Position numbers and translations under genes: made by a program. The notes under the pieces were generated by a model. It was not told the origin of the DNA. It worked only from the letters and a program-made list of their open reading frames with translations, and made no database searches. Source: an uncultured Solirubrobacterales bacterium (GTDB lineage Bacteria > Actinomycetota > Thermoleophilia > Solirubrobacterales > 70-9). From it: a stretch of DNA of 64,000 nt. Below, in pieces: positions 18,581 to 34,897 of the stretch (position 1 is its first letter; every line of letters begins with the position of its first letter). Location: NCBI GenBank assembly GCA_963759295.1, contig CAVWYT010000012.1, positions 3,604 through 67,603 on the forward strand, given 5' to 3'.

Positions 18581-18584
<4 letters not shown>
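17634..18584 (-). CDS. XdhC/CoxF/CoxI-family chaperone fused to a C-terminal YHS/TRASH metal-binding domain
   Basis: The start MITSELARR overlaps the coxL stop as ATGA. The XdhC_CoxI N-domain reads FVTATVVRVQHPTSVQPGSVALVL..G...G.VGG.C. The Rossmann-like C-domain reads VLVVGETPIADAL. The tail is IDPICGMTVAAVQSTPSVQNDGETVYFCSEGCKAEFEAQ, a YHS signature. Confidence 0.85.
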
Positions 18585-20967
<2,383 letters not shown>

Positions 20968-20971
<4 letters not shown>

Positions 20972-21447
20972 GCCTCCTGTCTCACGCCGGCCTCGTGCTC
21001 GGCTGCCCACCTGACGGCGGCGACGATGTTCTTGTAGCCCGTGCACCTGCAGATCGAACCCGAGATCGCCGTTCGGATCTCCTCCTCGCTGGGGTCAGGG
21101 TTCGAGTCCAGCAGCGCCCGCGCGGTCATCTGCATACCTGGCGTGCAGAAGCCGCACTGCAGCGCGTGGAGCTCGTGAAATCCCCGCTGGACCGGATCGA
21201 GCTCACCGTCGACCTCGAGCGACTCGACCGTCCGGATCTCGTGCCCGTCGCACATCGCCGCCAGCACCGTGCACGACTTCACCGGCCGGCCGTCCATCAA
21301 CACCACGCAGGCGCCGCAGTTGGAGGTGTCGCAGCCCCAGTGCGTGCCCTTCAGGCCGAGGGTCTCGCGAATGAAGTGGACGAGCAACAGGCGCGGCTCG
21401 ATCTCGCGGGAGACACGCTCGCCGTTGACCGTCATCGAGACGTCCAT
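20968..21447 (-). CDS. coxS: CO dehydrogenase small [2Fe-2S] subunit
   Basis: The 159-aa product has two [2Fe-2S] cysteine clusters, [11 protein letters not shown]...C and [10 protein letters not shown]...ICRCTGY. AGGAGG lies upstream. Confidence 0.95.
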
Positions 21448-21449
21448 GA

Positions 21450-22325
21450 TCAGGTCTCCTCCTTCAGGGCACGGGCCGTCGCGCGGCGCAGCGCTCGCCG
21501 GGTGAGCACACCGGCGAGGTGGCGCTTGTACTCGACCGGTCCGCGACCGTCGGCGCTCGGCGAGCAGTCGGCGGAGGCGATCTCTCCCGCCTCGGCGAAC
21601 AGCTCATCCGATGGCGACTTGCCGCGCAGCGTCTCCTCGGCCCGAGACAGGTGGACCGTCGTCATGCCGACGGCGCTGAGCGCGATCCCGGCGTCGGCGA
21701 TCGTGCCGCCATCGATCCAAACGGCCGCCGAAGCCGCGGCGATCGCCCAATCGCCGGCGCGGCGCTCGACCTTCTCGTGCGCGCTGCCCGCCCCGGGCCG
21801 CACCGGGACGCGGACCTCGGTCAGCAGCTCGCCGGCGCCGACCGCGGTCATGTAGGGGCCGATGTGGAAGTCCTCCATGCCGACCACCCGCTCGCCGTCG
21901 GCTCCGCGGATCACGACCCGAGCCTTGGCGGCCGAGCAGACGGCCGAGAGGTCCTCCGCCGCGTCGGCCTGGCAGAGAGAGCCGCCGATCGTGCCGCGGT
22001 TGCGGACGACGGGGTCGGCGATCACGGTCTCCGCGTCGGCGAACAGCGGCAGGCGCTCGGCGAGCAGCTCCGACTCGAGCAGATCAACGTGCCGTGTCAG
22101 CGCGCCGATCCTGACCTCGCCGTCGGCCTCGCGGATGTAGGAGAGCTCGGCGAGCTCGTTGATGTCGACGAGGTGCGAGGGACTCGCCAGTCGCAGCTTC
22201 ATCATCGGCAGCAGGCTGTGGCCACCGGCGATCACCCGGGCGCCCGAGCCGAGCCGCCCGAGCGCCTCGATCGCGCCCTCGACGCTCCTCGCGCGCTCGT
22301 AATCGAATGGCGCCGGCGTCTGCAA
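21450..22325 (-). CDS. coxM: CO dehydrogenase medium FAD-binding subunit
   Basis: The 291-aa product has an FAD_binding_5 pattern [18 protein letters not shown] and a CO_deh_flav_C tail. It uses a TTG start at 22323-22325, 3 nt after the upstream stop. Confidence 0.9.
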
Positions 22326-22328
22326 CCG

Positions 22329-22967
22329 CTACCCCTCTGGGCTCGAATCGCGGACCGGAAGCCGCCTGCGAGGCGCACCAACGTCCTCGCGCTGCTCGTA
22401 CTGGACGGGGGAATCGGTGCCGATCACCGGCGATCGCGGCAGGTTCGGTGGGCTCTCGTGACGGACGGACGGGTACAGCTCGCGCGCAGCCAGGCTGCCC
22501 CCCTCGACGTTCCTCAGCACCTCGCCCGGTGTCGGGCTGGCGGCGGCGATCGGCGCCTCGCGGCCGAGCCGCGCGAGGGTCAGCGTGCCCTTCGTGTAGA
22601 CCTCGCCGATCCGCGGCGGGATGACCTCGGTGCTGTCCGGGAAATTGCGCAATCCCGCCGCGGCGGCCCCGGGATACAGGCCTTCGATCAGGCCGACCGC
22701 GTCGCCGAGGCCCGCCTTCTTCACCAGCAGCCCCTCGAGCAGGTCGACGCCGGCGTCGAGTTGCTGGTTGATCGCGACCACGACGTCGTTGACCGGCGCG
22801 GTCTTGGAGACGATCTCACCGACTGCAGAGATCACCTCGTCGAGGCCCGCCGTGATCCTGCGCAGCGCGATGATCGTCGAGACGAGGTAGTAGACGAGCG
22901 CGAGCACGATCAGCACGACCGCGACGATCATCACCACCGCCGGCGCGACGACCCCGATGACGAGCAT
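22329..22967 (-). CDS. Membrane-anchored protein P4 (N-terminal TM + helical region + Pro-rich tail), unknown function
   Basis: The 212-aa product has a TM segment VVAPAVVMIVAVVLIVLALVYYLVSTIIAL, followed by RRITAGLDEVISAVGEIVSKTAPVNDVVVAINQQLDAGVDLLEGLL. It ends 3 nt before the coxM start. Confidence 0.6.
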   Translation of the reverse strand: MLVIGVVAPAVVMIVAVVLIVLALVYYLVSTIIALRRITAGLDEVISAVGEIVSKTAPVNDVVVAINQQLDAGVDLLEGLLVKKAGLGDAVGLIEGLYPGAAAAGLRNFPDSTEVIPPRIGEVYTKGTLTLARLGREAPIAAASPTPGEVLRNVEGGSLAARELYPSVRHESPPNLPRSPVIGTDSPVQYEQREDVGAPRRRLPVRDSSPEG

Positions 22968-22974
22968 GCTCGGG

Positions 22975-23241
22975 CTACTCCTTCTCCGCGTCGTCGACGA
23001 TCACGTCGAGCGAGCCGCCGTAGTCCGCGACTCCGGCGACCGTCTGCGCAACCTGCTCGCGGGTGGTCAGCAGCAGGGCCGTGGCGTCGAGGTCCTTCGA
23101 GCCCGCTCTTGCGACGCTCGCAATCGTCTCGACCGTGGGGACGATGCTCTGCGCCGCGGCGAGGACGCCACGAAGCAGATAGACGACCACGGGGAGGATC
23201 GCGACGAGCAGGACGATGCTCCCGATCCACCACAGGGTCAT
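22975..23241 (-). CDS. Small membrane protein P3 (TM + amphipathic helix), unknown function
   Basis: The 88-aa product is MTLWWIGSIVLLVAILPVVVYLLRGVLAAAQSIVPTVETIASVARAG.... The start overlaps the P2 stop as ATGA. Confidence 0.6.
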   Translation of the reverse strand: MTLWWIGSIVLLVAILPVVVYLLRGVLAAAQSIVPTVETIASVARAGSKDLDATALLLTTREQVAQTVAGVADYGGSLDVIVDDAEKE

Positions 23242-23807
23242 CGCGGCCTCCTCTCGGCGACGACCGCGGCCTTGCGCGCGATCCCCGGGAGCGCGGAGAG
23301 GATCACCTCGAACTGAGCGTTGATCGCCTTCACCGCGGGCTCGAGCGGACGCAGGTGCTGTGTCTCGACATCGCCAAGCGCGGTGGCGAGGGTCCCCAGG
23401 CCCTCCGAGATCGCCTCGAGGCCGCGGCGAATCAGGATCAGCGCGATCGCGAGCACCGCGACGACGACCAGAGCGAGCACGACGCTGAGCACGATCTGGA
23501 GGTCGGTGCTCATCGTCTGCGCCTGCTCGGAGAAGCCGTCGGTGAGCGCGTTCATGTAGCCGTCCTGGATCACGGCCTCGTCGACGATCTGGGCGAGGAC
23601 GGGCGCGGTCGCCTCGAGCTGCGGGATGTTCGCCGTGTTCGCGCCGACCTCACCGGCGATCTGAAGCAAGCCGTCGACCGAGCGCTTGATCCGGCCGACC
23701 TGCATCAGCAGCATCACCAACAGGGCCGCGACCACGAGCGCGGCGACCAGCCCGATGACCAACGCGATCGTCCAGTAGGTCGTGCCCGAGATCGCGACGA
23801 GGATCAT
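23238..23807 (-). CDS. Membrane protein P2 (two tandem TM + helix modules), unknown function
   Basis: The 189-aa product starts at the internal MILVAISGTTYW. TM1 is TIALVIGLVAALVVAALLVMLLM, followed by QVGRIKRSVDGLLQIAGEV. TM2 is IVLSVVLALVVVAVLAIALILI, followed by RRGLEAISEGLGTLATAL. The start overlaps the P1 stop as ATGA. Confidence 0.6.
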   Translation of the reverse strand: MILVAISGTTYWTIALVIGLVAALVVAALLVMLLMQVGRIKRSVDGLLQIAGEVGANTANIPQLEATAPVLAQIVDEAVIQDGYMNALTDGFSEQAQTMSTDLQIVLSVVLALVVVAVLAIALILIRRGLEAISEGLGTLATALGDVETQHLRPLEPAVKAINAQFEVILSALPGIARKAAVVAERRPR

Positions 23808-24061
23808 TTCCCGACCGCCACCTTTCGAAGAGCGCGAGCGGCGTGCAGGATCCTGATGCCCGAGTCGTTGATCCGCTCGATGCCGCCGAGCTCGGCGGTC
23901 TGCCGGCGCACCGCGCCGACCCCCTCCTCGGCGGTTCTCGCCTGACCGGCGATCCTCGTCGCCAGCGCCACGATCGTGATCACGATCACCGCGGCGACCG
24001 CGATCACGACAACTCCGAGGATGATCCCCACCACCCATCCGGTGGATGCCGCCGTCAGCAT
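23804..24061 (-). CDS. Small membrane protein P1 (TM + helix), unknown function; first gene of the cox operon
   Basis: The 85-aa product starts at the internal MLTAASTGWVVGIILGVVVIAVAAVIVITIVALATRIAGQARTAEEGVGAV.... The longer ORF-track start at 24142 adds an Arg/Gly-rich leader that is unlikely to be real. Confidence 0.55.
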   Translation of the reverse strand: MLTAASTGWVVGIILGVVVIAVAAVIVITIVALATRIAGQARTAEEGVGAVRRQTAELGGIERINDSGIRILHAARALRKVAVGK

Positions 24062-24203
24062 CGAGGGACCTCGAAGAGACCCGGGGAGACTGCGATCACC
24101 TGCTCCTGCTGCACTCCGCTCCTCCGCTGCCAACCCTAGCAACGATGTGCACCACGTCCCGGGCAGCGGTCGAGGGGCGTTAGCCTGAGAAACGGAGCAG
24201 CAC

Positions 24204-25358
24204 GTGAGCGCCTTGTCGAGTTCCGAGCGGACCGCGGTCGAGTGGCTGCGCCAGGGGCGGCGGGTCGTCAGCGCCGCGCTCGTCGACCGTATCGGCTCGG
24301 CGCCGCTCGACCCCGGGGCTCAGATGCTGATCGACGACCGCGGCAACATCGAGGGATCGGTGACCGGCGGCTGCGTGGAGGCCGCGCTCGTCGAGGAGGC
24401 GCAGCGGATCCTCGCCGGCGGCGAGGCCAGGGTCGTGACCTACGGCGTCTCCGACGAGGAGGCCCTCGGAGTCGGGCTCATGTGTGGGGGCACGGTCCGC
24501 GTGTTCGTGCACGAATACGACGAGGATGCGGTCGAGACGCTCGAGGCTGCGGCCGTCGCCCGCGCCGCCGACCGGCCGGTGGCCAGGGCCACGCTCCTCG
24601 ACGGAGATCGCGCCGGGGCCTCGATCTCGATCCTCGAAGACCGCGTTCTGGGCAGCCTCGGGATCGCCGACCTGCTCGATCGCTCGGTGGCGCGCGACGC
24701 GCGCGGACAGCTCGACGAGGGGGTTTCGCGCATCCGCCGCTACGGCGCGGGGGGCGAGGTGATGGGCTCCGAGCTGGCGGTCTACATTCAGGCGTTCGCG
24801 ACCCCGCCCCGGATGGTCATCTTCGGTGCGATCGACTTCTCCGCGGAGACGGCCAACGTCGCCGCCGACATCGGCTACAGGGTCACGATCTGCGATGCCC
24901 GCGAGCCGTTCGTCAAGAGCCCACGGTTCACGCGCAACGCGGAGGTCGTCGTCGACTGGCCCGACCGCTACCTGAGCGGGCAGGAGCTCGGGCCGCGCGA
25001 CGTGGTCCTGGTCTTCACCCACGATCCGAAGTTCGACGAGCCCGCGTTGACCGCCGCGCTGGCCACCGAGGTCGGATACATCGGCGCGCTCGGCAGTCGC
25101 CGCACCCAAGAACGACGGCTCGAGCGCCTGCGCGATGCCGGCCTCGACGAGCGGTCGATCGCCAGGCTCCACGCGCCCTGCGGGCTCGACGTCGGCGCCC
25201 GCACCCCGGCGGAGACCGCTGTCTCGATCCTCGCCGAGGTGATCGCCGTCCGCACCGGCCGCACGGGCGAGAGCCTGCGGGAGACGAGCGGCCCGATCCA
25301 TCCCGAGACCGCCTCACAGGAGGGCCGCTCGACGCCTGCCGCCGACGCGGTCGGCTGA
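24204..25358 (+). CDS. XdhC/CoxF-family molybdoenzyme maturation protein (divergent from the cox operon)
   Basis: The 384-aa product uses a GTG start with GGAG upstream. It reads ALVDRIGSAPLDPGAQMLIDDRGNIEGSVTGGCVEAALVEEA...MCGGTVRVFV, then MVIFGAIDFSAETANVA...YIGALGSRRT...LHAPCGLDVGARTPAETAVSILAEV. Confidence 0.9.
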   Translation: MSALSSSERTAVEWLRQGRRVVSAALVDRIGSAPLDPGAQMLIDDRGNIEGSVTGGCVEAALVEEAQRILAGGEARVVTYGVSDEEALGVGLMCGGTVRVFVHEYDEDAVETLEAAAVARAADRPVARATLLDGDRAGASISILEDRVLGSLGIADLLDRSVARDARGQLDEGVSRIRRYGAGGEVMGSELAVYIQAFATPPRMVIFGAIDFSAETANVAADIGYRVTICDAREPFVKSPRFTRNAEVVVDWPDRYLSGQELGPRDVVLVFTHDPKFDEPALTAALATEVGYIGALGSRRTQERRLERLRDAGLDERSIARLHAPCGLDVGARTPAETAVSILAEVIAVRTGRTGESLRETSGPIHPETASQEGRSTPAADAVG

Positions 25359-25417: not shown

Positions 25418-28400
25418 TCAGCCGAACAGTTCGGCCGGGGCCGCCTCGAGCGCGGCCTCGGTCGCCCGACGGCCCGCTTCGACCGCCGCGTCCATCTGGT
25501 GGAACTCGAGCAGGCCGACCCCGGGGGCGCGGGGCTCGATGACGAGGTTCGCGTACTTGCGCGAGGCCTGCGCGGTGTTGCTGCTCGCCAGCAAAAAGAG
25601 CCGGCCCAGGGTCTCGCCGAGCCCCGGCGGTGGGCGATCGGTGAAGCCGGCTGCGGCGACCTCGGGCAGGCCGTTTCCAGCCTCCTGATGCGTCCGAGAC
25701 GATGATCCGTTGCTGGCGCGGATGTCGACCGCGATCACGGGCCCCTCGCCGAGCTCCGCCATCGTCGCGACGGGGAGGTTGTCGATCAGGCCGCCGTCGA
25801 CGAGCAGCCGCTCGCCGCGGATCTGCGGCGGGGCAAGGACGGGCAGGCACATGCTGGTGCCGATGTGGTCCACCAGCCGCCCGTTGCGGTGGACGACCAA
25901 CTCGGAGCGGCGCAGATCGGCGCTCGCGCAAAAGAAGGAGCGCTCGATCTCCTCGAAGCGCACCTCCCCGAACACGCCCTGCAGCATCTCGAGGAAGCGC
26001 TGACCCCTGATCATCGCGTGGCGAGGGAACCGCCAGTCGTTGAGCGGGTAGCGGCGGACCCAGCTCTCATACGCGATCGCGTCGATCTCCTCGGGGTCGA
26101 GCCCCGCCGCGTAAAGACCGCCGAGGAATGCCCCCATGCTCACGCCCGCGACCCGATCGACGACGATCCCCGCCGCCTCGAGCTGCTCGATCACGCCGAT
26201 GTGCGCGAACGCCCTGGCGCCGCCGCCGGAGAGCACCAGCCCGACGGAACGACCGCAGAGCCGACGAGCCAACCTGCCGACGTCGGCGGCGCGGTCCTCG
26301 ACACGGAGCAGGTGATGCTCGATCGGCTCGAGCATCTCGACCAGCTCCGCAAGCGCCCCTGAGCCCTGCTGGACGTCGCAGGCCACGAGATCGGCCCCGT
26401 GCAGCGCCGGATCGATCTCACCGTCGATCGCGTCGCCCGGTCCCGCGATCACGAGGATGCGGTCCGCCTGCTGGACGCAGAACCGCCGCCAGTCCGGCGA
26501 GGAATCGGGCCCCACCGGCAGGACGACGACACCTGCCTCGGCCTCGGCACGATCGAGATGCGGTCCGAACGCCGCCACGTCCCCGTCCCCGCCGCGAGTG
26601 TGGGCCTCGGGCAGGCGGGCGGCGGGCGCGAACTGGCGCAGGGATTCGGTCAGGTCGGCGGCCAGTTCGTCGGCCCGATCGGCGTCGCCCAGGGCGAGGA
26701 GCGTGATCGTTGCGGCCACCGGCCGGGCTGCGAACTTGACGCCCTCCGACTCCGCCAGTTGCCGCGCGAGCTGCAGGTTCAAGGCCCGCGAGAGCTCGAG
26801 CGAGGAATCGAGCAGGCGCTGGAAGCTCCGCTCTCCGATCTCGACCAGCTCACAGTCACGCGCTGCCCTGATCGAGGCGGCACGCGGCTCACCGGTGATC
26901 AGCGCCAGCTCGCCGAGTGCCGCGCCCCTGCCCAGCTCGCGAAACACCTCTCCGTCCTGATCGACGATCTCGATTCGGCCCGCCCGGACCACGTACATGG
27001 CGTCGCCCGCATCACCCTCCTTGAACAGCCAGTCGCCGGCCGGGAGCCGGATCTCGTTCGCCGTTGCGGCGACCTCCTCCAGCAGGCTCGAGTCCAGGGT
27101 CGAAAACAGTGGCACCCGGGCGAGGAAGTCGGCCAGCGACTCGTGGATCGGGCCGGCGTCGCCCGGCTGCACGGACAGCGGCAGCTCGGCGACCGGGGCG
27201 GCCTTGGCCTGGAAGCTGCTCACGTGGGGTGGGGCGAGCGCGACCCGCATCGCGTCGGCCAGCGCCGGTACCCGCGCCGCCGCCTGCGCCGGACTGACCC
27301 CGCCCATGGCGAGGCCGCCGATGCCGGCGGTGAGCAGGCAACCGGCGGCGAACAGCCAGGCGTCGTCGAACGCCGCCACGGCGTCCTCGAGGGTCTCGGG
27401 AGTGCCGAGGATGGCGACCACCATCGCGACGCCGACCGCAGCTCCAACCTGACGTACGACCGAGGAAACGCCGGTCGCGGTCGCGAAGCTCTCACCCGGC
27501 GCCGAAGCGACGGCCGCGGAGCTCACGTTCGGGAAGGTGATCCCGGCGCCGAGGCCGAGGAGGATCACCCCCGGCAGCCATTCCGCCAGGTACGCGGGCT
27601 CGGGCCCGACCCTCAGAACCAGCCACATCACCCCGCCGGCCCAGATCAGTCCCCCGATCGCGACCACCGGCCGGTAGCCGATCCGCAGCGCGAGCCGGCT
27701 GAAAGGCCCGGCGATCGCGGCGGCGACGAACGGGCCGGGCGTGATCGCGAGGCCGGCCTGCAGGACCGTGTAATCCCACACGCCGGTGAGGAAGAGGACG
27801 TTGAGCAGCGTGTAGCCGAAGAAGCCGGCGGCGCCGATCACGCTGACTGCGTTGGCGACCGAGAAGGTCCGGTTGGCGAACAGCCGAGTGTCAACGACCG
27901 GCGCCCGGTGCCGTCGCGACCTGGCGACGAACGCCGCCAGGCAGAGCGCCGACACGCTGACGCAGGCGATCACGCCGGCGGAGGTCCAACCCCAGTCGCC
28001 GCCGTTGACGATCGCGACCACGAGGATCGCCACGGCGAACGCAAACAGCGCCGCGCCGGGCATATCCGGAAGCCGCCTGCGTCCCGCCTCGCGGCTCTCG
28101 ACCAGCTCCCGAGAGGCGAGCACGTACGCCGCGGCTCCGATCGGCAGGTTGATCACGAACACGAGCCGCCAGTCGGCGAGCGCGATCAAGAAACCACCGA
28201 TCGCGGGGCCGAGCCCGGCCGCGAGGGCGCCGATCGCGGAGATCAGCGCCACCGCGTGCGAGCGCTGCTCGACCTCGAAGCCGTGCAGCACCAGCGCCAG
28301 CCCGGCGGGGACCATCGCGGCGGCCCCGAGTGCCTGGATGACGCGGAAGGCGACCAGCACCTCGACCGACCAGGAGGTCGCGCACAGCAGGGACCCGAGG

Positions 28401-28702
28401 CCGAAGACCGCGAGTCCAACCAAAAAGACCCGCTTGCGGCCGATGACGTCGGCGAGTCGCCCGAACGGAAGCAGGAACGCCGCGAAGACGACGTTGTAGC
28501 CGTTGAGAATCCAGGAGAGCCCGCCGATGCTGGTTTCCGGGAACGACCGGGCAATGTCGGGAAAGGCGATATTGACGATCGTCGCGTCGAGAAATGCGAG
28601 AAAGAAACCGAGCGACGCGATCCCCAGGACCGATCGCGATGACGGCACCGAGCGCGCGCGCAGGCTGCGACGCTCGATTGCGGATCCCCCGGTTTGGGTC
28701 AT
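25418..28702 (-). CDS. Tri-domain protein: 14-TM MFS (DHA2-like) transporter + cyclic-nucleotide-binding domain + patatin-like phospholipase (NTE-like)
   Basis: The 1094-aa ORF is intact. The MFS N-half reads LDATIVNIAFPDIA...GRLADVIGRKRVF. The cNMP domain reads FKEGDAGDAMYVVRAGRIEIV...GRGAALGELALITGEPRAASIRA. The patatin domain has GLVLSGGGARAFAHIG (oxyanion), GVSMGA (GxSxG) and LVDGGLIDNLPV (catalytic Asp). Confidence 0.9.
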   Translation of the reverse strand: MTQTGGSAIERRSLRARSVPSSRSVLGIASLGFFLAFLDATIVNIAFPDIARSFPETSIGGLSWILNGYNVVFAAFLLPFGRLADVIGRKRVFLVGLAVFGLGSLLCATSWSVEVLVAFRVIQALGAAAMVPAGLALVLHGFEVEQRSHAVALISAIGALAAGLGPAIGGFLIALADWRLVFVINLPIGAAAYVLASRELVESREAGRRRLPDMPGAALFAFAVAILVVAIVNGGDWGWTSAGVIACVSVSALCLAAFVARSRRHRAPVVDTRLFANRTFSVANAVSVIGAAGFFGYTLLNVLFLTGVWDYTVLQAGLAITPGPFVAAAIAGPFSRLALRIGYRPVVAIGGLIWAGGVMWLVLRVGPEPAYLAEWLPGVILLGLGAGITFPNVSSAAVASAPGESFATATGVSSVVRQVGAAVGVAMVVAILGTPETLEDAVAAFDDAWLFAAGCLLTAGIGGLAMGGVSPAQAAARVPALADAMRVALAPPHVSSFQAKAAPVAELPLSVQPGDAGPIHESLADFLARVPLFSTLDSSLLEEVAATANEIRLPAGDWLFKEGDAGDAMYVVRAGRIEIVDQDGEVFRELGRGAALGELALITGEPRAASIRAARDCELVEIGERSFQRLLDSSLELSRALNLQLARQLAESEGVKFAARPVAATITLLALGDADRADELAADLTESLRQFAPAARLPEAHTRGGDGDVAAFGPHLDRAEAEAGVVVLPVGPDSSPDWRRFCVQQADRILVIAGPGDAIDGEIDPALHGADLVACDVQQGSGALAELVEMLEPIEHHLLRVEDRAADVGRLARRLCGRSVGLVLSGGGARAFAHIGVIEQLEAAGIVVDRVAGVSMGAFLGGLYAAGLDPEEIDAIAYESWVRRYPLNDWRFPRHAMIRGQRFLEMLQGVFGEVRFEEIERSFFCASADLRRSELVVHRNGRLVDHIGTSMCLPVLAPPQIRGERLLVDGGLIDNLPVATMAELGEGPVIAVDIRASNGSSSRTHQEAGNGLPEVAAAGFTDRPPPGLGETLGRLFLLASSNTAQASRKYANLVIEPRAPGVGLLEFHQMDAAVEAGRRATEAALEAAPAELFG

Positions 28703-28891
28703 GACTGCAACAAAGGGATGTGGCTCAGGCTACGTGCTACGTGAACGCCAGCCACGCTACCGCGTCGCGTCCCGTCGACCAATACGTGACACGAAAGATG
28801 CGACCAGGGCCGGAGGGATCCAGCCTCTTCCCCATGCCCGGAGCGCACGGCACCGCGCGCCCGGGCGATCGCGACCCTCTCGGCAGTCGGC

Positions 28892-29071
28892 CTACTTGCG
28901 CAGCGCGTCTCGCAGGTGTCCGCGCTTCTTTCGCGCCGACCCCTTCGCCTGGCGACCCTGACCCTTCGCCTTGCTTCGCTCACGGCCGGACAGGGCTCCG
29001 GCCGCCTCCTTGACCCGGCCGCGCACCTTGTCGAAGGTGCCTCCGGCCTTGTCGCGTCCTCTGCTTCTCAT
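28892..29071 (-). CDS. CsbD-like small general-stress protein
   Basis: Not in the track because it is only 59 aa. The product is MRSRGRDKAGGTFDKVRGRVKEAAGALSGRERSKAKGQGRQAKGSARKKRGHLRDALRK*. GGAAGGAG lies upstream. The pattern G..dk.kGk.KE..G......l...G...q..G matches the CsbD family. Confidence 0.65.
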   Translation of the reverse strand: MRSRGRDKAGGTFDKVRGRVKEAAGALSGRERSKAKGQGRQAKGSARKKRGHLRDALRK

Positions 29072-29164
29072 CGTCGACTCCTTCCCGCCGCGGGCGAGGT
29101 GTCACTCGCCCACGGGACTCGTATTAGCGATGTCGAGGGCGCCGCGTGCGGCGCCGATGCGCGG

Positions 29165-30115
29165 TCAGGAGGCGGTCTTTGCCTTCGAGCCGTTCTCGGC
29201 ACGGGAGCCATTGCGGCTCGTCCGACGCGAGGAGCCGCGCGACTTGGAGCTCGATCCCGAGCTGCGCGCCTTCTTCACCTTGCCCTCCTCGATCGTGCCG
29301 CGCCACCCCTCCTCGGGCTCGTGATCGAGCTCGACATAGGCCTTGAACCGGTGCAGGTCACCGCGCACCGCGCGCTTGACGAACCGCATTCCCCGGCTCG
29401 CCTTGTCGATGATGTTCGACGGCTGCACGTCGAGCGTCAGGTCGACCCGGGTCAGGTTCTCCGACAGCTGATGGAAGGTGACCAGACCGGTGTGGGCATA
29501 GCCCTCGGTCACGTTCCACTCGATGCGCTCGTCGGGCCGTTGCTCGAAGATGTCGGCCTCGAAGCGCTTGTTGATGCCCCAGATCTTCGCGTGGAAGGAG
29601 ACCGTCGCATCGTCGACCTGCTCGGCGCTCTCGATCCGGTGCATGAACTCCGGCCAATCCTCGAACCGGGTCCAATGGTCGTAGACGACCGATACCGGAA
29701 CCGCGACGTCGATCGCCTGCTGGATCGGCATCCGGCGCCCGCTTCCGTGACCGGGCGCGGCGCGGCCCTCGGAGTCGTCCTCGTCGCCGGCGTCCTTGCT
29801 GCCGCCGCCGAACAGTCCCTTCAGGCGTCCGCCGCCGAGCAGCTCGCTCGGTGAGTCCGGCGTCGCCTGCTTGACCGTGTCCTGAACCTGTGACTTGGCC
29901 TTCTCCTTGGCCTGGTCGCCGAGCTCGGAGACCTTGCCGGACACCTTCGGAAGCCCGACTTTCGCCAGCCCCTGCGCCGCCAGCGGCACCGCCGCCAGCG
30001 CCACTCCCGCCACCGCGAGCCGCTTCGGGTCGCTGACCACGCTGTCGCTGCTCGCGACGCGCTGCGCCGCCTGCTTGGCGCCCTTGCCCACCTTCTCGAT
30101 TCCCGTGCCTGCCAT
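29165..30115 (-). CDS. SRPBCC (polyketide cyclase/dehydrase-like, START-fold) protein with disordered N-region and Ser/Arg/Lys-rich C-tail
   Basis: The 316-aa product has the core IQQAIDVAVPVSVVYDHWTRFEDWPEFMHRIESAEQVDDATVSFHAKIWGINKRFEADIFEQRPDERIEWNVTEGYAHTGLVTFHQLSENLTRVDLTLDV. The tail is KKARSSGSSSKSRGSSRRTSRNGSRAENGSKAKTAS. Confidence 0.8.
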   Translation of the reverse strand: MAGTGIEKVGKGAKQAAQRVASSDSVVSDPKRLAVAGVALAAVPLAAQGLAKVGLPKVSGKVSELGDQAKEKAKSQVQDTVKQATPDSPSELLGGGRLKGLFGGGSKDAGDEDDSEGRAAPGHGSGRRMPIQQAIDVAVPVSVVYDHWTRFEDWPEFMHRIESAEQVDDATVSFHAKIWGINKRFEADIFEQRPDERIEWNVTEGYAHTGLVTFHQLSENLTRVDLTLDVQPSNIIDKASRGMRFVKRAVRGDLHRFKAYVELDHEPEEGWRGTIEEGKVKKARSSGSSSKSRGSSRRTSRNGSRAENGSKAKTAS

Positions 30116-30135
30116 CGCTCTCCTCAGTTCATCGT

Positions 30136-30309
30136 TTAGTTGCCGTCGGCCTCACCGCCGCCGCGAAGCAGCCGGAAGACCACGATCCCGGTCACCGCGC
30201 CCGCCACCGTCGCCCCCGCGGCCGCGCCAACCGGCCCGGGCCGGTCGCCGTGCATACGCTGGGCAACCGGACGGACAACGGCGTCGCGGGCCTTTTCCTT
30301 GACACTCAA
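30136..30309 (-). CDS. Small single-TM protein (57 aa), hypothetical; missed by the ORF track
   Basis: A TTG start overlaps the putative upstream stop (cTTGAg). The product is (M)SVKEKARDAVVRPVAQRMHGDRPGPVGAAAGATVAGAVTGIVVFRLLRGGGEADGN*. GC3 is much higher in this frame than in the overlapping tail of track ORF 30152-30607. GAGGAG for the next gene follows. Confidence 0.4.
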   Translation of the reverse strand: MSVKEKARDAVVRPVAQRMHGDRPGPVGAAAGATVAGAVTGIVVFRLLRGGGEADGN

Positions 30310-30607
30310 GCTTCGTCCTCGTCCTCGTCTCGTCGTCCAAGGCCTCGGCGAGCTCGGGCGACACCTCGGTCCGCACGGCGGCCTCGGCGCGCCAGCGAAT
30401 CTTCGCGTCGCGGTAGGTGACGCCAGGCTCGATCTCGTCGGGCAGGTTCTCCCGCTCGGTGTGGGAGCCGGAGCGCCGCTCGTCGGAGCCCGGGAAGCTC
30501 ACCTCGGTCTCGGGCACCTCGTCGAAGCGGATCGCCTTCATCTTCGCCACCGCGCCGATTTCGACATCGGCAAGCGGCTCCTTGTCCGTGCGCTTCTTGG
30601 CGCTCAC
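30306..30607 (-). CDS. Acidic ~100-aa protein, unknown function (apparent 1-nt frameshift 8 codons before the natural stop)
   Basis: A GTG start overlaps the upstream stop (GTGA). The product is SAKKRTDKEPLADVEIGAVAKMKAIRFDEVPETEVSFPGSDERRSGSHTERENLPDEIEPGVTYRDAKIRWRAEAAVRTEVSPELAEALDDE. After gacgacgag the track frame switches to rare AGG codons and low GC3. Restoring one G gives ...DDEDEDEDEA* with the stop at 30306-30308. Confidence 0.5.
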
Positions 30608-32220
30608 GATCGCTGCGCCTTCTGCACGTCTCGCAGGGTCACGCGACCGTCGGCTCCCGTGCCCTCGATCTGCTCGACGTCCAGCCCGGCATCGGCCGCC
30701 TCGCGCAGCGCGGCCGCGGTCGCGTTGTGCTTGTCGGCCCCGTTGTGCTTGTCGGCCCGCTTCTCGCGGCGGCGCTCGCCCATCTCCATCACCTTGCGCG
30801 TCGCGGCCAGGCTGAGGTCCTTCGCCTCGTCGGACGCGGCGCTGCCGAGCTGCTTGGCGGCGACCTTGACCGCTTCCTTGGCCAGTTGGGGAGCACTGAT
30901 TCCGGGCAGCCCGCCTCCGTCGCCTCCGCCGTTGCTCTCGGAGCCGCCGTCGCCGCTGCCGCCGCCGCCGCCGAGCAGGCCTCCTGCCGCCCCACCGACA
31001 ACCCCTCCGGCCGCGTCGCCGACGCCCTGGCCGACGCCGCCGACCGCCTGGCCGGCCGCGTCGCCGACGCCCTGGCCGAGATCGCCTACGCCCTGGCCGA
31101 CGCCGCCGACCGCCTGGCCGGCGCCCTCCCCGAGCCCGCCGACCGCCTCACCGGCACCCTCACCGACCTGGCCCACCGTCTGCCCGAGATTGCCGACCGT
31201 CTGGTCGAGATTCCCGACCGCCTGCCCGGCGCCCTCGCCGACGCCCTCGACCGCCTGGCCGGCTCCCTGGCCGACGCCCTCGACCGCCTGGCCGGCTCCC
31301 TGGCCGACGCCCTCGACGGCCTGGCCGGCTCCCTGGCCGACGCCCTCGACGGCCTGTCCGGCGCCCTCGCCGACGCCCTCGACCGCCTGGCCGGCTCCCT
31401 GGCCGACGCCCTCGACGGCCTCTCCGGCGCCTTCGCCGACGCTCTCGACGGCCTGGCCGGCGCCCTGGCCGACGCCCTCGACCGCCTGGCCGGCGCCCTC
31501 GCCGACCTCGCCGACCGCCTGCTTGGCACCCTCGCCCACGTGCTCGGCTCCCTCGCCGGTCTCATCGATGGCCTCGCCGGCGCCCGAGCCGATGTGTTCG
31601 ACGGCGGCGCTGAGGTTCTCGACCAGCTCCGGGTTGCGGTCGACCGCGGTCAGGACCCGGTCGATCATCGCCGCAACGTGGTCGAGCCGCACCTTGGCGA
31701 GTGCTTGCGCCTCGACGCCCTCGATGTCGATCCGCAGCTTGCCGAGGTGGACGTCGACCCCGACCGTGAGGTTCAGGAGGTCGAGCACCTTCGCCTTGAC
31801 CGCGACGTGCGCGTCCAGCTGGTCGAGCTCGAGATGGATCCGGTCGACCTTGACGACCGGCACCGCGAGCAGGAGATCGGGATTGGTGATCTCGCCGTCG
31901 CCGGTCGCGTACGAGCGGTACTCGCGTTCGGCGCGGGTCAACTGGCCCTCGACGTTTTGCGCGAACCGGTACTTCTCGGTCTTCTGGGACGCCGAGCGGC
32001 CGTCGCCGTCGGAGCTCTTGGAGCTCTTCGCCGGAGAGCTCTTGGTCTGGCGCGCGAGCGCTCGCTTGGTCCTGGCGGGCGCGCTGCTCTTCTTCGAGGA
32101 GGCGCCGTGATCGTTCTTTGCGGAGGTGCGGGTGCGCCGACGCGCCGGGGTCGACGTGCTCTGACCGTTCTTCGACCCCCGTGAACGTGTGCTTGATCGG
32201 CTGTTCGACTTTCGCGCCAT
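30604..32220 (-). CDS. Repeat protein C: basic Ser/Arg/Lys-rich N-tail + conserved unknown domain + ~200 aa of 11-residue G/Q/A/V/E repeats + Gly-rich linker + PSBD(E3-binding)-like C-terminal domain
   Basis: The 538-aa ORF is intact. Residues 116-203 are paralogous to residues 46-133 of the next gene. The repeats read VGEGAGQAVEGVGQGAGQAVEG.... The C-terminus is TAAALREAADAGLDVEQIEGTGADGRVTLRDVQKAQ. Confidence 0.75.
   Translation of the reverse strand: MARKSNSRSSTRSRGSKNGQSTSTPARRRTRTSAKNDHGASSKKSSAPARTKRALARQTKSSPAKSSKSSDGDGRSASQKTEKYRFAQNVEGQLTRAEREYRSYATGDGEITNPDLLLAVPVVKVDRIHLELDQLDAHVAVKAKVLDLLNLTVGVDVHLGKLRIDIEGVEAQALAKVRLDHVAAMIDRVLTAVDRNPELVENLSAAVEHIGSGAGEAIDETGEGAEHVGEGAKQAVGEVGEGAGQAVEGVGQGAGQAVESVGEGAGEAVEGVGQGAGQAVEGVGEGAGQAVEGVGQGAGQAVEGVGQGAGQAVEGVGQGAGQAVEGVGEGAGQAVGNLDQTVGNLGQTVGQVGEGAGEAVGGLGEGAGQAVGGVGQGVGDLGQGVGDAAGQAVGGVGQGVGDAAGGVVGGAAGGLLGGGGGSGDGGSESNGGGDGGGLPGISAPQLAKEAVKVAAKQLGSAASDEAKDLSLAATRKVMEMGERRREKRADKHNGADKHNATAAALREAADAGLDVEQIEGTGADGRVTLRDVQKAQRS
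30990..31590 (-). repeat. 33-bp (11-codon) tandem repeat array inside repeat protein C
   Basis: The core holds eight near-identical units gccgacgccctcgaccgcctggccggctccctg at 31237-31500, each 33 nt with 0-5 substitutions. More degenerate 33-nt units flank the core on both sides. Confidence 0.85.
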
Positions 32221-32229
32221 GCCCTCTCC

Positions 32230-33162
32230 TCAGCCTTTGCCCTGCTGGCCGCCGCCCGATCCCTGCTGGGCCGGTTGGCGCTGCTGTCCCTGCTGGGCCG
32301 GTTGGCCCTGTTGGCCCTGCTGGCCCTGCTGAGCCGGTTGGCCCTGCTGGCCGGCCAGGTTGCCGAGGCCTTGCCCGGCCCCCTGCCCCACCTGGCCCAG
32401 GCCCTGGCCAACTCCCTGCCCGGCCTGTCCGACGCCCTGTCCGACGCCTTGCCCGGCCTCGCCGAGGCCCTGGCCGACCCCTTGCCCGGCCTCGCCGAGG
32501 CCCTGGCCGGCGCCCTCGCCGAGCTTGCCGACGCCCTGCCCGACCCCCTGCCCGGCCTCGCCGAGGCCCTGGCCTGCGCCCTCGCCGAGCTTGCCGACGC
32601 CCTTGCCGGCACCCTGGCCGACGTCCGAAAGCGCCTGGTTGGCGCCCTTGCCGATCTGCGGAAGCGCCATCTCGGCGCCCTCGCCGACGTCCTCGGCGAC
32701 ATCTCCGGCGGATCCGAGCAGCTCCCCGGTTCCGGCGCCTGTGTCCTCGACGGCTCGTCCGATTCCCGCCAGCAGCTCCGGGTTTCGATCGAGCGTCAGG
32801 GCGACCCGATCGACGATCGCTTGCACGGTGTCGAGGCGCGCATTGAGAAGGGCCTGGGCCTCCACTCCCTCGATCTCGAGCAGGACCTTCTCGAGCCGCA
32901 CGTCGGCGCCGACGCTGAGCTGGGCCAGCCTGCGTACCTCGGCGGCAACCGCCACCTGAGCGCGCAGGTCGTCGACCTCGACCTCGAGCTTGTCGACCTT
33001 GACCACCGGTACGTCGACGATCACATCCGAGCCCGGTTCGATCTTGCTCGGATCGACGATCGCGTAGTCGTCGTACTTCGGCTGCGACTTCGCCTGCTTA
33101 CGCTGCGCCTCCCGGCGCTTTGCGTTGCGTTCCCGGCGCTTGTCTGTGTTCTCGTCGGCCAC
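32230..33162 (-). CDS. Repeat protein B: basic N-tail + the same conserved unknown domain + G/Q/A/V/L 11-residue repeats ending in a Gln/Gly-rich tail
   Basis: The 310-aa ORF is intact. The shared domain reads VPVVKVDKLEVEVDDLRAQVAVAAEVRRLAQLSVGADVRLEKVLLEIEGVEAQALLNARLDTVQAIVDRVALTLDRNPELL. The repeats read GEGAGQGLGEAGQGVGQGVGKL..., then QQGQPAQQGQQGQQGQPAQQGQQ. Confidence 0.75.
   Translation of the reverse strand: MADENTDKRRERNAKRREAQRKQAKSQPKYDDYAIVDPSKIEPGSDVIVDVPVVKVDKLEVEVDDLRAQVAVAAEVRRLAQLSVGADVRLEKVLLEIEGVEAQALLNARLDTVQAIVDRVALTLDRNPELLAGIGRAVEDTGAGTGELLGSAGDVAEDVGEGAEMALPQIGKGANQALSDVGQGAGKGVGKLGEGAGQGLGEAGQGVGQGVGKLGEGAGQGLGEAGQGVGQGLGEAGQGVGQGVGQAGQGVGQGLGQVGQGAGQGLGNLAGQQGQPAQQGQQGQQGQPAQQGQQRQPAQQGSGGGQQGKG
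32233..32742 (-). repeat. 33/66-bp periodic coding repeats inside repeat protein B
   Basis: The segment ttgcccggcctcgccgaggccctggcc recurs at about 32449, 32482 and 32548. The segment gcgccctcgccgagcttgccgacgccct recurs at about 32509 and 32575 (66-bp spacing). CAG/CCA-type Gln-Pro repeats lie at 32240-32340. Confidence 0.75.
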
Positions 33163-33168
33163 GCTCGA

Positions 33169-33798
33169 TCAGCCTCGCTTCGAGTTGTTGATCGCGTCGC
33201 TCGCCTTCTGGACCTGGGAGGCGACCTGACCGACCTGCTCGCTTCGCTGCGCGACCTCGCCCGCGGCGTGGCCGATCGCCTTCAACGCCGAGTCGGGCTT
33301 CGGCATGCTGACGTTCGGCGCCTTGATCTTCGGCATGCTGACCTTCGGCGCCTTGACCTTGGGCATCTTCACGTTCGGCTTTCCGATCCGCCCGAGGACT
33401 CCCTTGCGCCGCTGGCTGCGGCTCAGTGCCAGTCCGCCCGCGAGCCCGACCAGCGCGGCCCCGCCGGCTGCGGCGGGCGCCTTCGCCTTCTCGGCGAACG
33501 CAGCGAGCTTCGACTTCTCGGCGCCGTTGCCCTTCGCCGCCGCCCCGAGCTGCCTTCGCCGCCGCGCCCGAGCTTGACTGCTTGGAGGCTCGCTGCCCCG
33601 CGCTCGGGGAGCGACGCTGACTCGACGAGCGCTGAGTCGACGAACGCTTGCGCTCGAGGCGCTGCTGCTGCTGGTGCTTCGTGAGCCGCCCGAGGACGTG
33701 CGCTTGCTTTGCGCGCTCGCACCGTTGCCGCTCTTCGAACCTGCCGACCGGCTCTTGGAACTCTTCGACCGCGTGCTGCCCGTCTTCGTCTGGGCCAT
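33169..33798 (-). CDS. Protein A: ~100-aa Ser/Arg/Lys-rich disordered N-region + one TM helix + MPKVKAP-type short repeats + helical tail
   Basis: The 209-aa product starts MAQTKTGSTRSKSSKSRSAGSKSGNGASAQSKRTSSGGSRSTSSSS. The TM helix is AAAGGAALVGLAGGLAL. The short repeats read GKPNVKMPKVKAPKVSMPKIKAPNVSMPKP. The stop lies 6 nt before the start of gene B. Confidence 0.6.
   Translation of the reverse strand: MAQTKTGSTRSKSSKSRSAGSKSGNGASAQSKRTSSGGSRSTSSSSASSASVRRLSARRVSVAPRARGSEPPSSQARARRRRQLGAAAKGNGAEKSKLAAFAEKAKAPAAAGGAALVGLAGGLALSRSQRRKGVLGRIGKPNVKMPKVKAPKVSMPKIKAPNVSMPKPDSALKAIGHAAGEVAQRSEQVGQVASQVQKASDAINNSKRG
33301..33379 (-). repeat. 30-bp tandem repeat (2.6 copies) encoding the MPKVKAPKVS motif
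   Basis: The three units are cggcatgctgacgttcggcgccttgatctt, cggcatgctgaccttcggcgccttgacctt and gggcatcttcacgttcggc. Confidence 0.8.
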
Positions 33799-33932
33799 CA
33801 GAAGGCCTCCTTGCTCGCTTCGGGTGCCCGGGAAACCTCCCGGCCCTCGCGCTTCGTTCTACCCCCGGCCAGGCCCGTCAATCTCGGATCGACGCCAAAC
33901 GCCCCGCTAAGGCCACAAATCATTCGGACGGT

Positions 33933-33959
33933 GGGGGCCCGGTCATCCGGTCGGCCCCC
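33933..33959 (-). terminator. Putative terminator hairpin between the ArsM-like gene and the repeat-protein operon
   Basis: The hairpin gggggcccgg-tcat-ccgg(tc)ggccccc has a 10-11 bp stem with a 2-nt bulge. It lies about 105 nt downstream of the stop at 34067 and about 135 nt upstream of the start at 33798. Confidence 0.4.
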
Positions 33960-34066
33960 CGGCCTACTGGTGCGCCCGGTCGCGGCGGTCGCGATCTTGC
34001 ACCGCCCGCCTTCGTCAGCTCGAGCTACGCCACCGAGGCCGGCGCGATCGCGATGCGGCGAGGTCG

Positions 34067-34897
34067 CTACTCGCGCACGGCGAGGATCGAGATGCTCTCG
34101 ATCTCGTAGGTGCTACAGGCGTCGAGCGCGCGATCGGAGACGAACTCGTACGGGTTCGCCTGCGTGCGGCGCACCTGGAACCCCGCCGCTTCGACCGTCT
34201 CGAGGTAGCTGCGGCGCGGGATTGCTCCGGCGACGCACGCCGCCCAGAGGTCGACGTTGCGACGCGTCGTCTCGCGCAGCGGCCGGCCGCTGACGATGTC
34301 GGAGATCGCGAGCCGTCCCCCCGGCCGCAGCACCCTGGCCGCCTCCTCGAAGACGCGATCCTTGCGCAGCGAGAGGTTGATGACGCCGTTCGAGATCACG
34401 CAATCGAAGCTCTGCGCGTCGAGCGGCAGTTCCTCGATCGTCGACCGATGAAACTCGACCTGCTCGAACCCGTGGCGATCTCGCAGCCGCTCGGCCTTGG
34501 CGACCTGCGCTTCGGTGAAGTCGACGCCCGCGACCATGCCGTCCGTCCCGACGGCGAGCGCCGCGTAGAAGACATCGGTCCCGGAACCCGAGCCGAGGTC
34601 GAGGACCCGCTCGCCCGGTCGCAGCGCGGCGAGCTCGAAGTGGTGCCCGACGCCCGCGAACGAGGCGAGGGCATCTGCCGGTAGGTCGTCGAGCCGTTCG
34701 GGGTCGTAGCCGAGCCGCTCGGCGAGACCGCGGCCGGTCTCGAAGTGCAGTTCGCCGCTCTCCTCGCGGGCGACGTGCCCGTACATCTCCTTGACCGCTG
34801 ACTCGAGCCGTTGGCCGTCGACCAGCGATGTGGCGTCCGCCTGCGGCAGCTGCCCGGCGACGGCCATCTCCTGCTCGCGGGCGCTCGTCTCGCTCAA
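34067..34897 (-). CDS. ArsM-like class I SAM-dependent methyltransferase
   Basis: The 276-aa product reads VKEMYGHVAREE...FETGRGLAERLGY...VLDLGSGSGTDVFYAA...VAGVDFT..Q...A...VISNGVINLS.DK..VF.EA.RVLRPGGRLAISDIV. This is the pattern of arsenite / generic small-molecule methyltransferases. Confidence 0.75.
   Translation of the reverse strand: MSETSAREQEMAVAGQLPQADATSLVDGQRLESAVKEMYGHVAREESGELHFETGRGLAERLGYDPERLDDLPADALASFAGVGHHFELAALRPGERVLDLGSGSGTDVFYAALAVGTDGMVAGVDFTEAQVAKAERLRDRHGFEQVEFHRSTIEELPLDAQSFDCVISNGVINLSLRKDRVFEEAARVLRPGGRLAISDIVSGRPLRETTRRNVDLWAACVAGAIPRRSYLETVEAAGFQVRRTQANPYEFVSDRALDACSTYEIESISILAVRE

Follow-up and report, generated by a model that had tools for sequence, protein, structure and literature searches.

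A paralogous protein pair with an unannotated head domain and predicted 3-11 helical repeats in an apparent operon of an uncultured Solirubrobacterales bacterium

The 64,000-nucleotide stretch of DNA considered here (the window; about 71% G+C) comes from an uncultured Solirubrobacterales bacterium and carries, on its minus strand, five closely packed open reading frames (ORFs) that make up an apparent operon in the ORF list. In the order A-B-C-D-SRPBCC these are gene A (33169..33798, 209 residues), gene B (32230..33162, 310 residues), gene C (30604..32220, 538 residues), gene D (30152..30607, 151 residues as read, overlapping C by 4 bp) and, last, an SRPBCC (Polyketide_cyc) gene (29165..30115, 316 residues). 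Coordinates of all five genes and of their parts refer to the minus strand. Our subject is the pair B and C, whose two ORFs together are exactly the interval 30604-33162 picked out by an earlier reading made without database searches (the sequence-only reading). Each protein joins a predicted folded head domain to a long array of glycine-rich 11-residue repeats. Both appear to be cytoplasmic structural proteins rather than enzymes, and we tentatively take them to form a protective coat under stress.

B and C are paralogues. Compared at full length by BLASTP they give E=3e-34 with 50% identity, and the head domains alone give E=1.7e-23 with 52% identity and no gaps. The ungapped register pairs C116-203 with B47-134 (47 of 88 positions identical, 53%), whereas the register of the sequence-only reading, C116 against B46, yields merely 4 identities in 88. 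That reading had proposed a paralogous pair sharing a domain of about 90 residues, and on this point it was right; the letters of the domain strings it quoted are also correct, but its range for B is off by one, the string being 89 residues long and running from 46 to 134. The head of B occupies residues 46-134 (32761..33027) and ends in a D-R-N-P motif. In C, by alignment to B, it occupies residues 116-203 (31612..31875).

An AlphaFold2 model of full-length B, made with 150 sequences, gives the region 41-140 a confidence score (pLDDT, predicted local distance difference test) of 68-94 as means of 10-residue blocks; an earlier run on the domain alone, with 54 sequences, reached 47 and was unusable. 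In the model a short strand (47-50) is followed by a hairpin of two long strands (54-76 and 80-102), a further short strand (105-108) and a helix (110-126) that terminates in a near-invariant D-x-N-P motif. By alignment, the hairpin of C would lie at about 123-145/149-171 and its helix at about 179-195. The strands are amphipathic, with the maximum of the hydrophobic moment at 158-160 degrees, and conservation follows the two faces: 22 apolar columns of the hairpin are conserved (entropy 0.91 bits), whereas 24 polar columns, net acidic as a group, are variable (2.06 bits). A two-stranded hairpin of about 75 Å whose apolar face is conserved would probably not be stable on its own, and we therefore infer from the model that the head oligomerises, either as homo-oligomers or as B/C hetero-oligomers. 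The first and second halves of the hairpin align in hhalign with E=0.0012 (probability 19%, 23 columns), which is suggestive, and only that, of an origin by internal duplication.

No known family was found for the head. Neither Pfam nor NCBIfam matches it in B or C, and Pfam leaves it unmatched in 150 diverse family members. Pfam searches relaxed to E<=5 on 45 head-only sequences returned scattered noise, the commonest hit being RIP_P131-like (7 of 45, E>=0.043), and searches of PDB sequences and with domain-only profiles reached E values of 0.58-0.93 at best. With the head model as query, Foldseek found nothing below E=1.5 in the PDB and nothing below 0.03 in BFVD; its top matches, none of them significant, include the aerolysin pore, the FliF S-ring, TraT, ribosomal proteins and a phage tailspike chaperone. 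Gas_vesicle profiles (GvpA/J/M) match none of B, C, D or the 150 family members, and the hairpin strands of GvpA are shorter than the head strands of about 23 residues. With the Pfam, NCBIfam, PDB and Foldseek searches all empty, the domain is, as had been claimed, an unrecognised one that maps to no existing family. The head domain and D are both families without any annotation, and we regard the head as a candidate for a new Pfam family.

Beyond the head, both proteins continue into tandem repeats. The array of B spans residues 135-270 (32353..32760) with about 12 units of consensus GLGEAGQGVGQ / VGKLGEGAGQG, and that of C spans residues 204-415 (30976..31611) with about 19 units of VGEGAGQAVEG and a net charge of about -30. 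At the DNA level, Tandem Repeats Finder reports a period of 33 bp at 31215-31540 (9.9 copies, 88% matches) and again at 32362-32620 (7.8 copies, 76% matches). The self-identity of the protein sequences at a lag of 11 residues is 0.58 for C and 0.51 for B, as against 0.01-0.34 at lags that are not multiples of 11. These figures confirm the strict 11-residue period that had been described for both proteins.

A sequence with a period of 11 residues has harmonics at multiples of 32.7 degrees, and the question is which of them carries the power in hydrophobicity. In the B and C arrays, 72-94% of the harmonic power (three scales) lies at 98.2 degrees, the angle of an 11/3 or "3-11" alpha helix. Permutations of the repeat register reached the observed fraction in 6 of 5000 trials for C and 13 of 5000 for B, and the maximum of the hydrophobicity moment falls at 90-110 degrees in 150 of 154 family members. 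On a helical wheel of 1,516 family units, A8, V1, A5 and V9 form a single arc with four variable polar positions (E, Q, D, K, S) opposite to it, and aromatics account for 0.05% of residues. Glycines at unit positions 4, 2 and 6 border the Val/Ala arc in these units, which were picked by a regular expression with Gly fixed at the positions matching K6 and K8 of the group-3 LEA (LEA3) motif; Gly at the K6/K8-equivalent positions is also seen directly in the repeat stacks of B and C. As judged from this pattern, the array sequence encodes an amphipathic 3-11 helix. A beta-solenoid or silk-like reading of the GxGxG repeats was set aside, the 163.6-degree harmonic being 10-20 times weaker than that at 98.2 degrees.

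The sequence-only reading had called the 11-residue period a hallmark of the LEA3, apolipoprotein and synuclein type, a claim that is borne out and sharpened by the dominance of the 98.2-degree harmonic and by the LEA3 pattern of positions. It had also left the fold of the repeats as an open question. To this the encoded 3-11 amphipathic helix gives a partial answer, while the confidence of AlphaFold2 is low past the first few repeats: in the model of B, the first three or four units are helical with pLDDT 50-67 and the remaining array lies below 50. Such values are compatible with conditional folding or with disorder and prove neither.

The head-domain family comprises at least 1,487 clusters at 50% identity (E<=1e-3), 530 of them with E<=1e-30. 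All 75 close homologues are labelled "hypothetical", and members bear the label "hypothetical protein" even in RefSeq records of Streptomyces and Deinococcus deserti. Gene order was compared in 80 related loci, the best 80 of 289 loci found among 185,579 species genomes; these belong to Thermoleophilia (Solirubrobacterales, Thermoleophilaceae, Conexibacter), Rubrobacter, unclassified Actinomycetota and one Acidimicrobiales metagenome-assembled genome. Family members also occur in the cultured Streptomyces thermoviolaceus, as WP_189427589.1, and in Deinococcus deserti, as DEIDE_RS18140. D. deserti and D. taeanensis carry members on plasmids, and the plasmid collection searched has others in Streptomyces and Nonomuraea records.

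A B-type gene, a C-type gene and D follow one another in a fixed co-directional order in about 70 of the 80 loci. In the 64 genomes with two copies, all 128 domains find their best match in the same positional type of another genome, with a mean head-domain identity of 0.77 within types versus 0.59 between them. The duplication is therefore ancient, and the retention of both copies suggests that B and C act as a heteromer. Only one copy, with very long arrays, is present in Rubrobacter and in some Thermoleophilaceae loci, and in Streptomyces the one copy precedes a D-like ORF. The region beyond the head domain varies in length from 63 to about 600 residues across species. A minority subtype (P0073, P0204, P0182 and L085 5788-6675 on Deinococcus deserti plasmid 1) accounts for the signal peptides found in 2 of 188 family members, has repeats rich in Thr, Asn, Val and Gln (VANTALQPGGVVSEAVQTVGS) that are nearer to the composition of perilipin-4, and includes one member with a C-terminal 3-keto-disaccharide hydrolase (DUF1080-type) domain.

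Repeats of this kind could in principle be a mis-assembled simple repeat, or GC-rich non-coding DNA read as genes. Long ORFs do overlap on both strands here, and many homologues are truncated or frameshifted inside the repeats. The plus-strand ORFs, at 30140-32184 and 32275-33684 (656, 485 and 469 residues), are rich in Pro, Ala and Leu and mirror the minus-strand arrays. The G+C content at third codon positions, however, is 0.85-0.91 across B, C and SRPBCC on the minus strand (0.90 for C, 0.85 for B) against 0.80 for the plus-strand shadow ORF over C; with this lower value, and with homologues on the opposite strand, we judge the plus-strand ORFs not to be genes. Compared with its closest relative (91% identical), C shows insertions and deletions inside the array, the clearest being a gap of 22 residues (two units) in the block of perfect repeats, and B shows an 11-residue gap within its array. 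The arrays are not an assembly artefact, a possibility raised by the sequence-only reading, because the same arrays recur, in frame, in orthologues from independently assembled genomes, many of them built from long reads. Together with the extent of the family (289 loci, 1,487 clusters) and the conserved amphipathic register, this already refutes the artefact, which retains next to no probability.

The two paralogues differ in what surrounds the head and array. C begins with a basic, disordered tail rich in Ser, Arg and Lys (residues 1-79, 31984..32220, about +20), a composition kept in its orthologues, and continues into a conserved C-type-specific segment (residues 80-115, 31876..31983) with the motif SASQKTEKYRFAQNVEG and an AEREY stretch. 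Most C-type orthologues have the KYRF motif contained in it (SASQKxEKYRFAQNV), no B-type ones do, and B itself is without it. After the array, residues 416-495 of C (30736..30975) form a Gly-rich linker and then a Lys/Glu/Ala-rich segment (LAKEAVKVAAKQLGSAASDEAKDLSLAATRKV...), which we read as helical by its sequence and which is conserved in P0032, P0076, P0079 and L001. C then ends in a peripheral-subunit-binding domain (PSBD; Pfam E3_binding; residues 503-533, 30622..30714) that B also lacks, with a score of 29.7 bits for PF02817 against a gathering cut-off of 23.7. E3_binding is matched in 12 of 150 family members (best E=5.3e-13), and tblastn with the last 98 residues of C, covering the helical segment and the PSBD, finds most C-type orthologues and no B-type orthologue. 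B ends instead in a tail rich in Gln, Gly and Pro (residues 271-310, 32233..32352, read from the translation), similar to those of its closest orthologue (L001) and of P0061 and P0064; to the sequence-only reading it looked prion-like or of low complexity.

A bona fide PSBD conserved in C-type proteins, alongside a fixed B/C pair, bears on one reading of the head, namely that it forms a large oligomeric beta-barrel, ring or shell (a pore or a compartment-like structure), its long hairpins packed next to one another as in the aerolysin pore, the FliF S-ring or TraT. The repeats would form a fringe around it, and 2-oxoacid dehydrogenase components such as E3 would be recruited by the PSBD. Two amphipathic strands of 23 residues would be unstable alone, their apolar face is conserved, and aerolysin, FliF and TraT are among the Foldseek matches. 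Those matches, however, all have E>=1.5; strands of about 75 Å are too long for a simple transmembrane barrel; the signal peptides are confined to the two members mentioned above; and the module has no linked gene for E3, E1 or a cargo. We consider this reading very unlikely, and a protective coat assembled through the heads remains the one we prefer.

The region upstream of the module points to a stress context. At 33860..33883, 62 bp upstream of the start codon of A, lies the motif GATT-N15-GGGTA(G), which looks like a promoter of the SigB/SigF general-stress type. SigB of Bacillus and Streptomyces and mycobacterial SigF have a consensus of the GTTT-N12-19-GGGTA type (PMC8346170, PMC4694148). 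Nothing in the window fits the strict pattern GTTT-N13-19-GGGTA; the site is picked up once the -35 part is relaxed to GNNT, as is done for Streptomyces SigB, and GNNT-N14-16-GGGTA has six matches on the two strands of the window, including 33883-33860. Of the 80 related loci, 57 have G(G/T)TTT-N14-16-GGGTA immediately upstream of the module on its coding strand. The module-upstream region holds 81 matches, or 0.72 per kb versus 0.058 per kb on the opposite strand (about 12-fold), and the closest relatives L001 and L002 have GATTCA-N-GGGTAG in the equivalent position. A sigma-70 scan of 28600-34400 returned zero sites. Most likely, then, A-B-C-D-SRPBCC is a five-gene minus-strand operon driven by a sigmaB/sigmaF-type general-stress promoter. 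A second peak of 21 matches lies 1.5-2.0 kb past the start of the C domain (in L022 between D and a downstream SRPBCC gene), which suggests that SRPBCC, where it is downstream, has its own promoter of the same GTTT-N-GGGTA class. Elsewhere the module has stress genes among its neighbours (CsbD, PRC+DUF2382, an MscS-type channel, a TetR-SpoIIE phosphatase and Usp), and DUF2795 and ChaB lie near the Streptomyces homologue.

The three other genes of the operon vary in how closely they keep to the pair. D is directly downstream of the C-type gene in 72 of the 80 loci and has no Pfam or NCBIfam match. Its family is 85-110 residues long with the motif PDVEIGA-VKAK-LRF ... SERENLPDEVEPGVTYRDVRVRWRAAA (also written PDVEIGA..KAKRLRF...), and its conserved part in the window is residues 1-95 (30323-30607). 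The 151-residue ORF of the window has an Arg/Gly-rich tail, whereas the near-identical P0228 and P0229 end in ...ELAEALDDDDEDEDEA at 99-100 residues. As the +1 frame of the window reads ...DEDEDEA and then a stop (corrected stop 30306-30308), a 1-nucleotide insertion or deletion near 30330, real or a sequencing error, has probably lengthened the ORF. D and the head both start with PDV and hydrophobic residues; the idea that D is a truncated relative of the head was rejected (hhalign probability 0.3%).

The A protein is very basic (net +36) and of low complexity, with an N-terminus rich in Ser, Arg and Lys, one Ala/Gly/Leu hydrophobic segment and short repeats of the PKVxM type. It has no Pfam or NCBIfam match, and tblastn finds it in 9 of the 80 loci, a count limited by the low-complexity filter. 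The SRPBCC gene adjoins the module, upstream or downstream, in 54 of the 80; its protein matches PF03364 with E=2.8e-15 and has an N-terminal hydrophobic segment and a C-terminal tail rich in Ser, Arg and Lys. The N-terminus of this protein (30070-30115, IEKVGKGAKQAAQ) equals the C repeat EHVGEGAKQAV at 8 of 11 positions, and the orthologue in L082 carries similar VGKGVKDAVGE units; a repeat-like segment of this sort may co-assemble with the arrays.

Similar disordered tails rich in Ser, Arg, Lys and Gly are found in C (31984-32220), A (33544-33798) and SRPBCC (29165-29275), and in SRPBCC orthologues a Ser/Arg-rich tail exceeds 100 residues (L082 5727-6998; L083 7754-9217). The common basic tail could be a tag for electrostatic co-assembly, a tag for binding nucleic acid or polyphosphate, or a target for phosphorylation. 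Charge laid out in blocks in this way (about +20 at the N-terminus of C, about -30 in its array, +36 in A, and the basic SRPBCC tail) is what would be wanted if the proteins formed a polyampholyte condensate or "molecular shield" that binds no interface. The repeats would then stay largely disordered, and acidic arrays and basic tails would coacervate, possibly with nucleic acid or polyphosphate, into a protective gel or glass with the head setting the valency. The recurrence of Ser/Arg-rich tails in orthologues and the low AlphaFold2 confidence of the array agree with this, and the promoter motif and stress context fit it equally well. The charge layout is not conserved, however: among the N-terminal tails of 188 members, 70 are acidic (including P0043 and P0047) and 33 basic, and Streptomyces members have acidic N-termini and Arg-containing repeats. 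For pure disorder, moreover, the family-wide 98-degree pattern, the conserved Val/Ala stripe and the variable polar arc would all be superfluous. We hold a condensate to be possible, though doubtful, and prefer a coat in which the arrays fold.

Directly downstream of the operon, at 25418-28702 on the minus strand, a 1,094-residue protein is encoded that fuses an MFS transporter to a cyclic-nucleotide-binding domain and a patatin-like phospholipase (MFS-cNMP-patatin), and 6 of the 80 related loci have a gene of this kind no more than 8 kb from the module. Further away, 18581-25358 holds a molybdopterin cluster of the CO-dehydrogenase/xanthine-dehydrogenase type (large subunit, FAD subunit and XdhC accessory protein) that is unrelated to the module and that also contains two ORFs without a Pfam match (22329-22967 and 23238-24038). 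The flanking methyltransferases, BBE/FAD oxidase and XdhC/CO-dehydrogenase-type genes of the window show no conservation with the module in the 80 related loci.

The lipase-like gene that adjoins the module is one of several features that would suit a specific coat of neutral-lipid droplets or membranes, that is, a bacterial analogue of perilipin or apolipoprotein involved in managing storage lipids and not in protection at large. The hairpin would serve as an irreversible anchor, comparable to the beta regions of apoB, with the 3-11 helices spreading across the lipid surface and SRPBCC dealing with lipid. The encoded helix is weakly hydrophobic, aromatic-free and Gly-rich, like that of Plin4, and a partner with the lipid-binding SRPBCC fold is co-transcribed or co-regulated. 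Sub-threshold matches of the repeats are solely to families of lipid surfaces (Apolipoprotein, ApoLp-III, CsmC and Senescence). Yet the module shows no consistent linkage to lipid-storage genes, the polar face, being acidic, is unlike that of known lipid-droplet helices, and the SRPBCC fold binds many kinds of ligand, so that a dedicated lipid coat seems unlikely to us.

The reading that we prefer, with a probability of roughly 40%, is a protective coat, LEA-like or perilipin-like, that is induced by stress and assembles itself by means of the hairpin head. It builds on the anatomy, periodicity, conservation, synteny and promoter motif described above, to which it would add oligomerisation, folding on drying or at an interface, a protective role and a partner for the PSBD. 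The heads, each an amphipathic beta-hairpin of about 46 residues plus a helix, would have an apolar face that is left unsatisfied in the monomer and that would drive the assembly of B and C, and D, as a small Arg-rich beta protein, may contribute extra strands. The tails of 12-19 or more units would be disordered in dilute solution and would fold to a continuous 3-11 helix on loss of water or on contact with a polar/apolar interface, presenting a narrow Val/Ala stripe bordered by glycines with the acidic and amide face outward. Bundled by the heads, they would lie on membranes, neutral-lipid surfaces or client proteins under osmotic or desiccation stress, acting in a manner analogous to group-3 LEA proteins and perilipin-type helices. 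SRPBCC, with its lipid-binding fold, and the basic Ser/Arg/Lys tails of A, C and SRPBCC may co-assemble with the acidic arrays, and the PSBD of C may dock a partner protein. We count in favour of such a coat the stress genes that neighbour the module in other genomes, the weak matches of the repeats to lipid-surface families, and the occurrence of the family in soil and desert groups that tolerate desiccation, for example Deinococcus deserti.

Several observations weigh against this proposal. A glycine content of about 40% disfavours a helix in solution, and most of the array has a pLDDT below 50. With an acidic polar face and no interfacial Lys, binding to anionic membranes would be weak. LEA_4 (PF02987) is unmatched in B and C at E<=1 and in 150 members at E<=0.001, and no Perilipin match in Pfam was found in B, C or 150 family members. 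Apolipoprotein (PF01442) scores 25.7 bits against a cut-off of 90, with weak matches in 18 of 150 members, and the weak matches to lipid-surface families may reflect composition only. Finally, the -35 element of the window is GATT and not GTTT.

A bolder version joins most of these elements. In it, B, C and D would build a cytoplasmic stress assembly in Actinomycetota and Deinococcota, with hetero-oligomeric rings or sheets of hairpins bearing an acidic, glycine-zippered brush of 3-11 helices that becomes an ordered coat or shell on drying. The assembly would recruit the basic-tailed SRPBCC and A proteins, and the PSBD would dock an enzyme such as dihydrolipoamide dehydrogenase. We attach very little probability to this picture as a whole; if true, it would amount to a protective organelle or lattice of a kind new to bacteria, more than another LEA-like protein.

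Group-3 LEA proteins and 3-11 helices of the perilipin/synuclein type are central to survival of drying and to the coating of lipid surfaces. To our knowledge, bacterial examples are few and nearly all were recognised through Pfam LEA_4. The present family is large and unannotated, and it belongs to dominant soil lineages (Solirubrobacterales, Thermoleophilia, Rubrobacter) whose stress biology is little known. With Gly in place of the interfacial Lys and with an acidic polar face, it is a natural experiment that could show which properties of the 11-mer are important. It also couples the array to what would be a new folded assembly domain, a fixed paralogue pair, a PSBD docking module and a recognisable, predicted stress promoter, and these features are directly testable in cultured carriers.

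Compared with known systems, the combination of head, array and PSBD with a fixed paralogue pair and a stress promoter has no description in the literature and libraries searched; its parts each have a nearest relative in kind. C resembles the E2 component of 2-oxoacid dehydrogenases in having a PSBD that scores above the gathering threshold and is conserved in C-type orthologues. Unlike in E2, however, this PSBD ends a repeat protein and is accompanied by no lipoyl or acyltransferase domain: Pfam Biotin_lipoyl and 2-oxoacid_dh do not match C, and NCBIfam E2 models match only the linker/PSBD, with 15-25 bits against cut-offs above 400. The head shares long alternating strands and a conserved apolar face with the hairpins of aerolysin-type pores, the FliF S-ring and TraT and with the beta regions of apoB. 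It differs from aerolysin, FliF and TraT in that its Foldseek matches have E>=1.5, its strands have roughly double the length that would cross a membrane, and nearly all members lack a signal peptide.

The arrays have closer counterparts. Repeats of 11 residues form 3-11 helices in synuclein, apolipoproteins and perilipins, and the Plin4 helix is Gly-rich and without bulky residues (PMC8064757). With perilipin 4, alpha-synuclein and the exchangeable apolipoproteins the arrays have in common the 11-residue period, the dominant 98-degree moment and a very long, repetitive predicted helix, and with Plin4 in particular the weak hydrophobicity, the lack of aromatics and the many glycines. They differ from all of these in being non-homologous, bacterial and cytoplasmic, and in having an acidic polar face without the Lys/Asp pattern.

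Closest of all are the LEA3 proteins (LEA_4; for example Deinococcus radiodurans DR_1172 and C. elegans LEA-1), which share with the arrays their tandem 11-residue units and apolar residues at the same four positions of the register, giving a narrow stripe on a 3-11/alpha helix. B and C are, like LEA3 proteins, hydrophilic overall and found in a context of stress or desiccation. The canonical group-3 LEA motif is TAQAAKEKAGE (PMC6559209), and LEA 11-mers alone suffice for the desiccation protection of bacteria (PMC8670023). When the unit is framed as AVEGVGQGAGQ, each of its positions agrees in polarity with the corresponding one of TAQAAKEKAGE, apart from G in place of K6 and K8. The arrays depart from LEA3 in their Gly content of about 40%, their net acidity and their near lack of Lys, with the interfacial Lys replaced by Gly, and B and C depart from it further in joining the array to a conserved beta-hairpin head, predicted to be folded, and in forming a fixed paralogue pair within an operon. 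Judged by its sequence pattern, the array appears to be a variant of the LEA3-type 11-mer 3-11 helix in which Lys has given way to Gly and the polar face is acidic.

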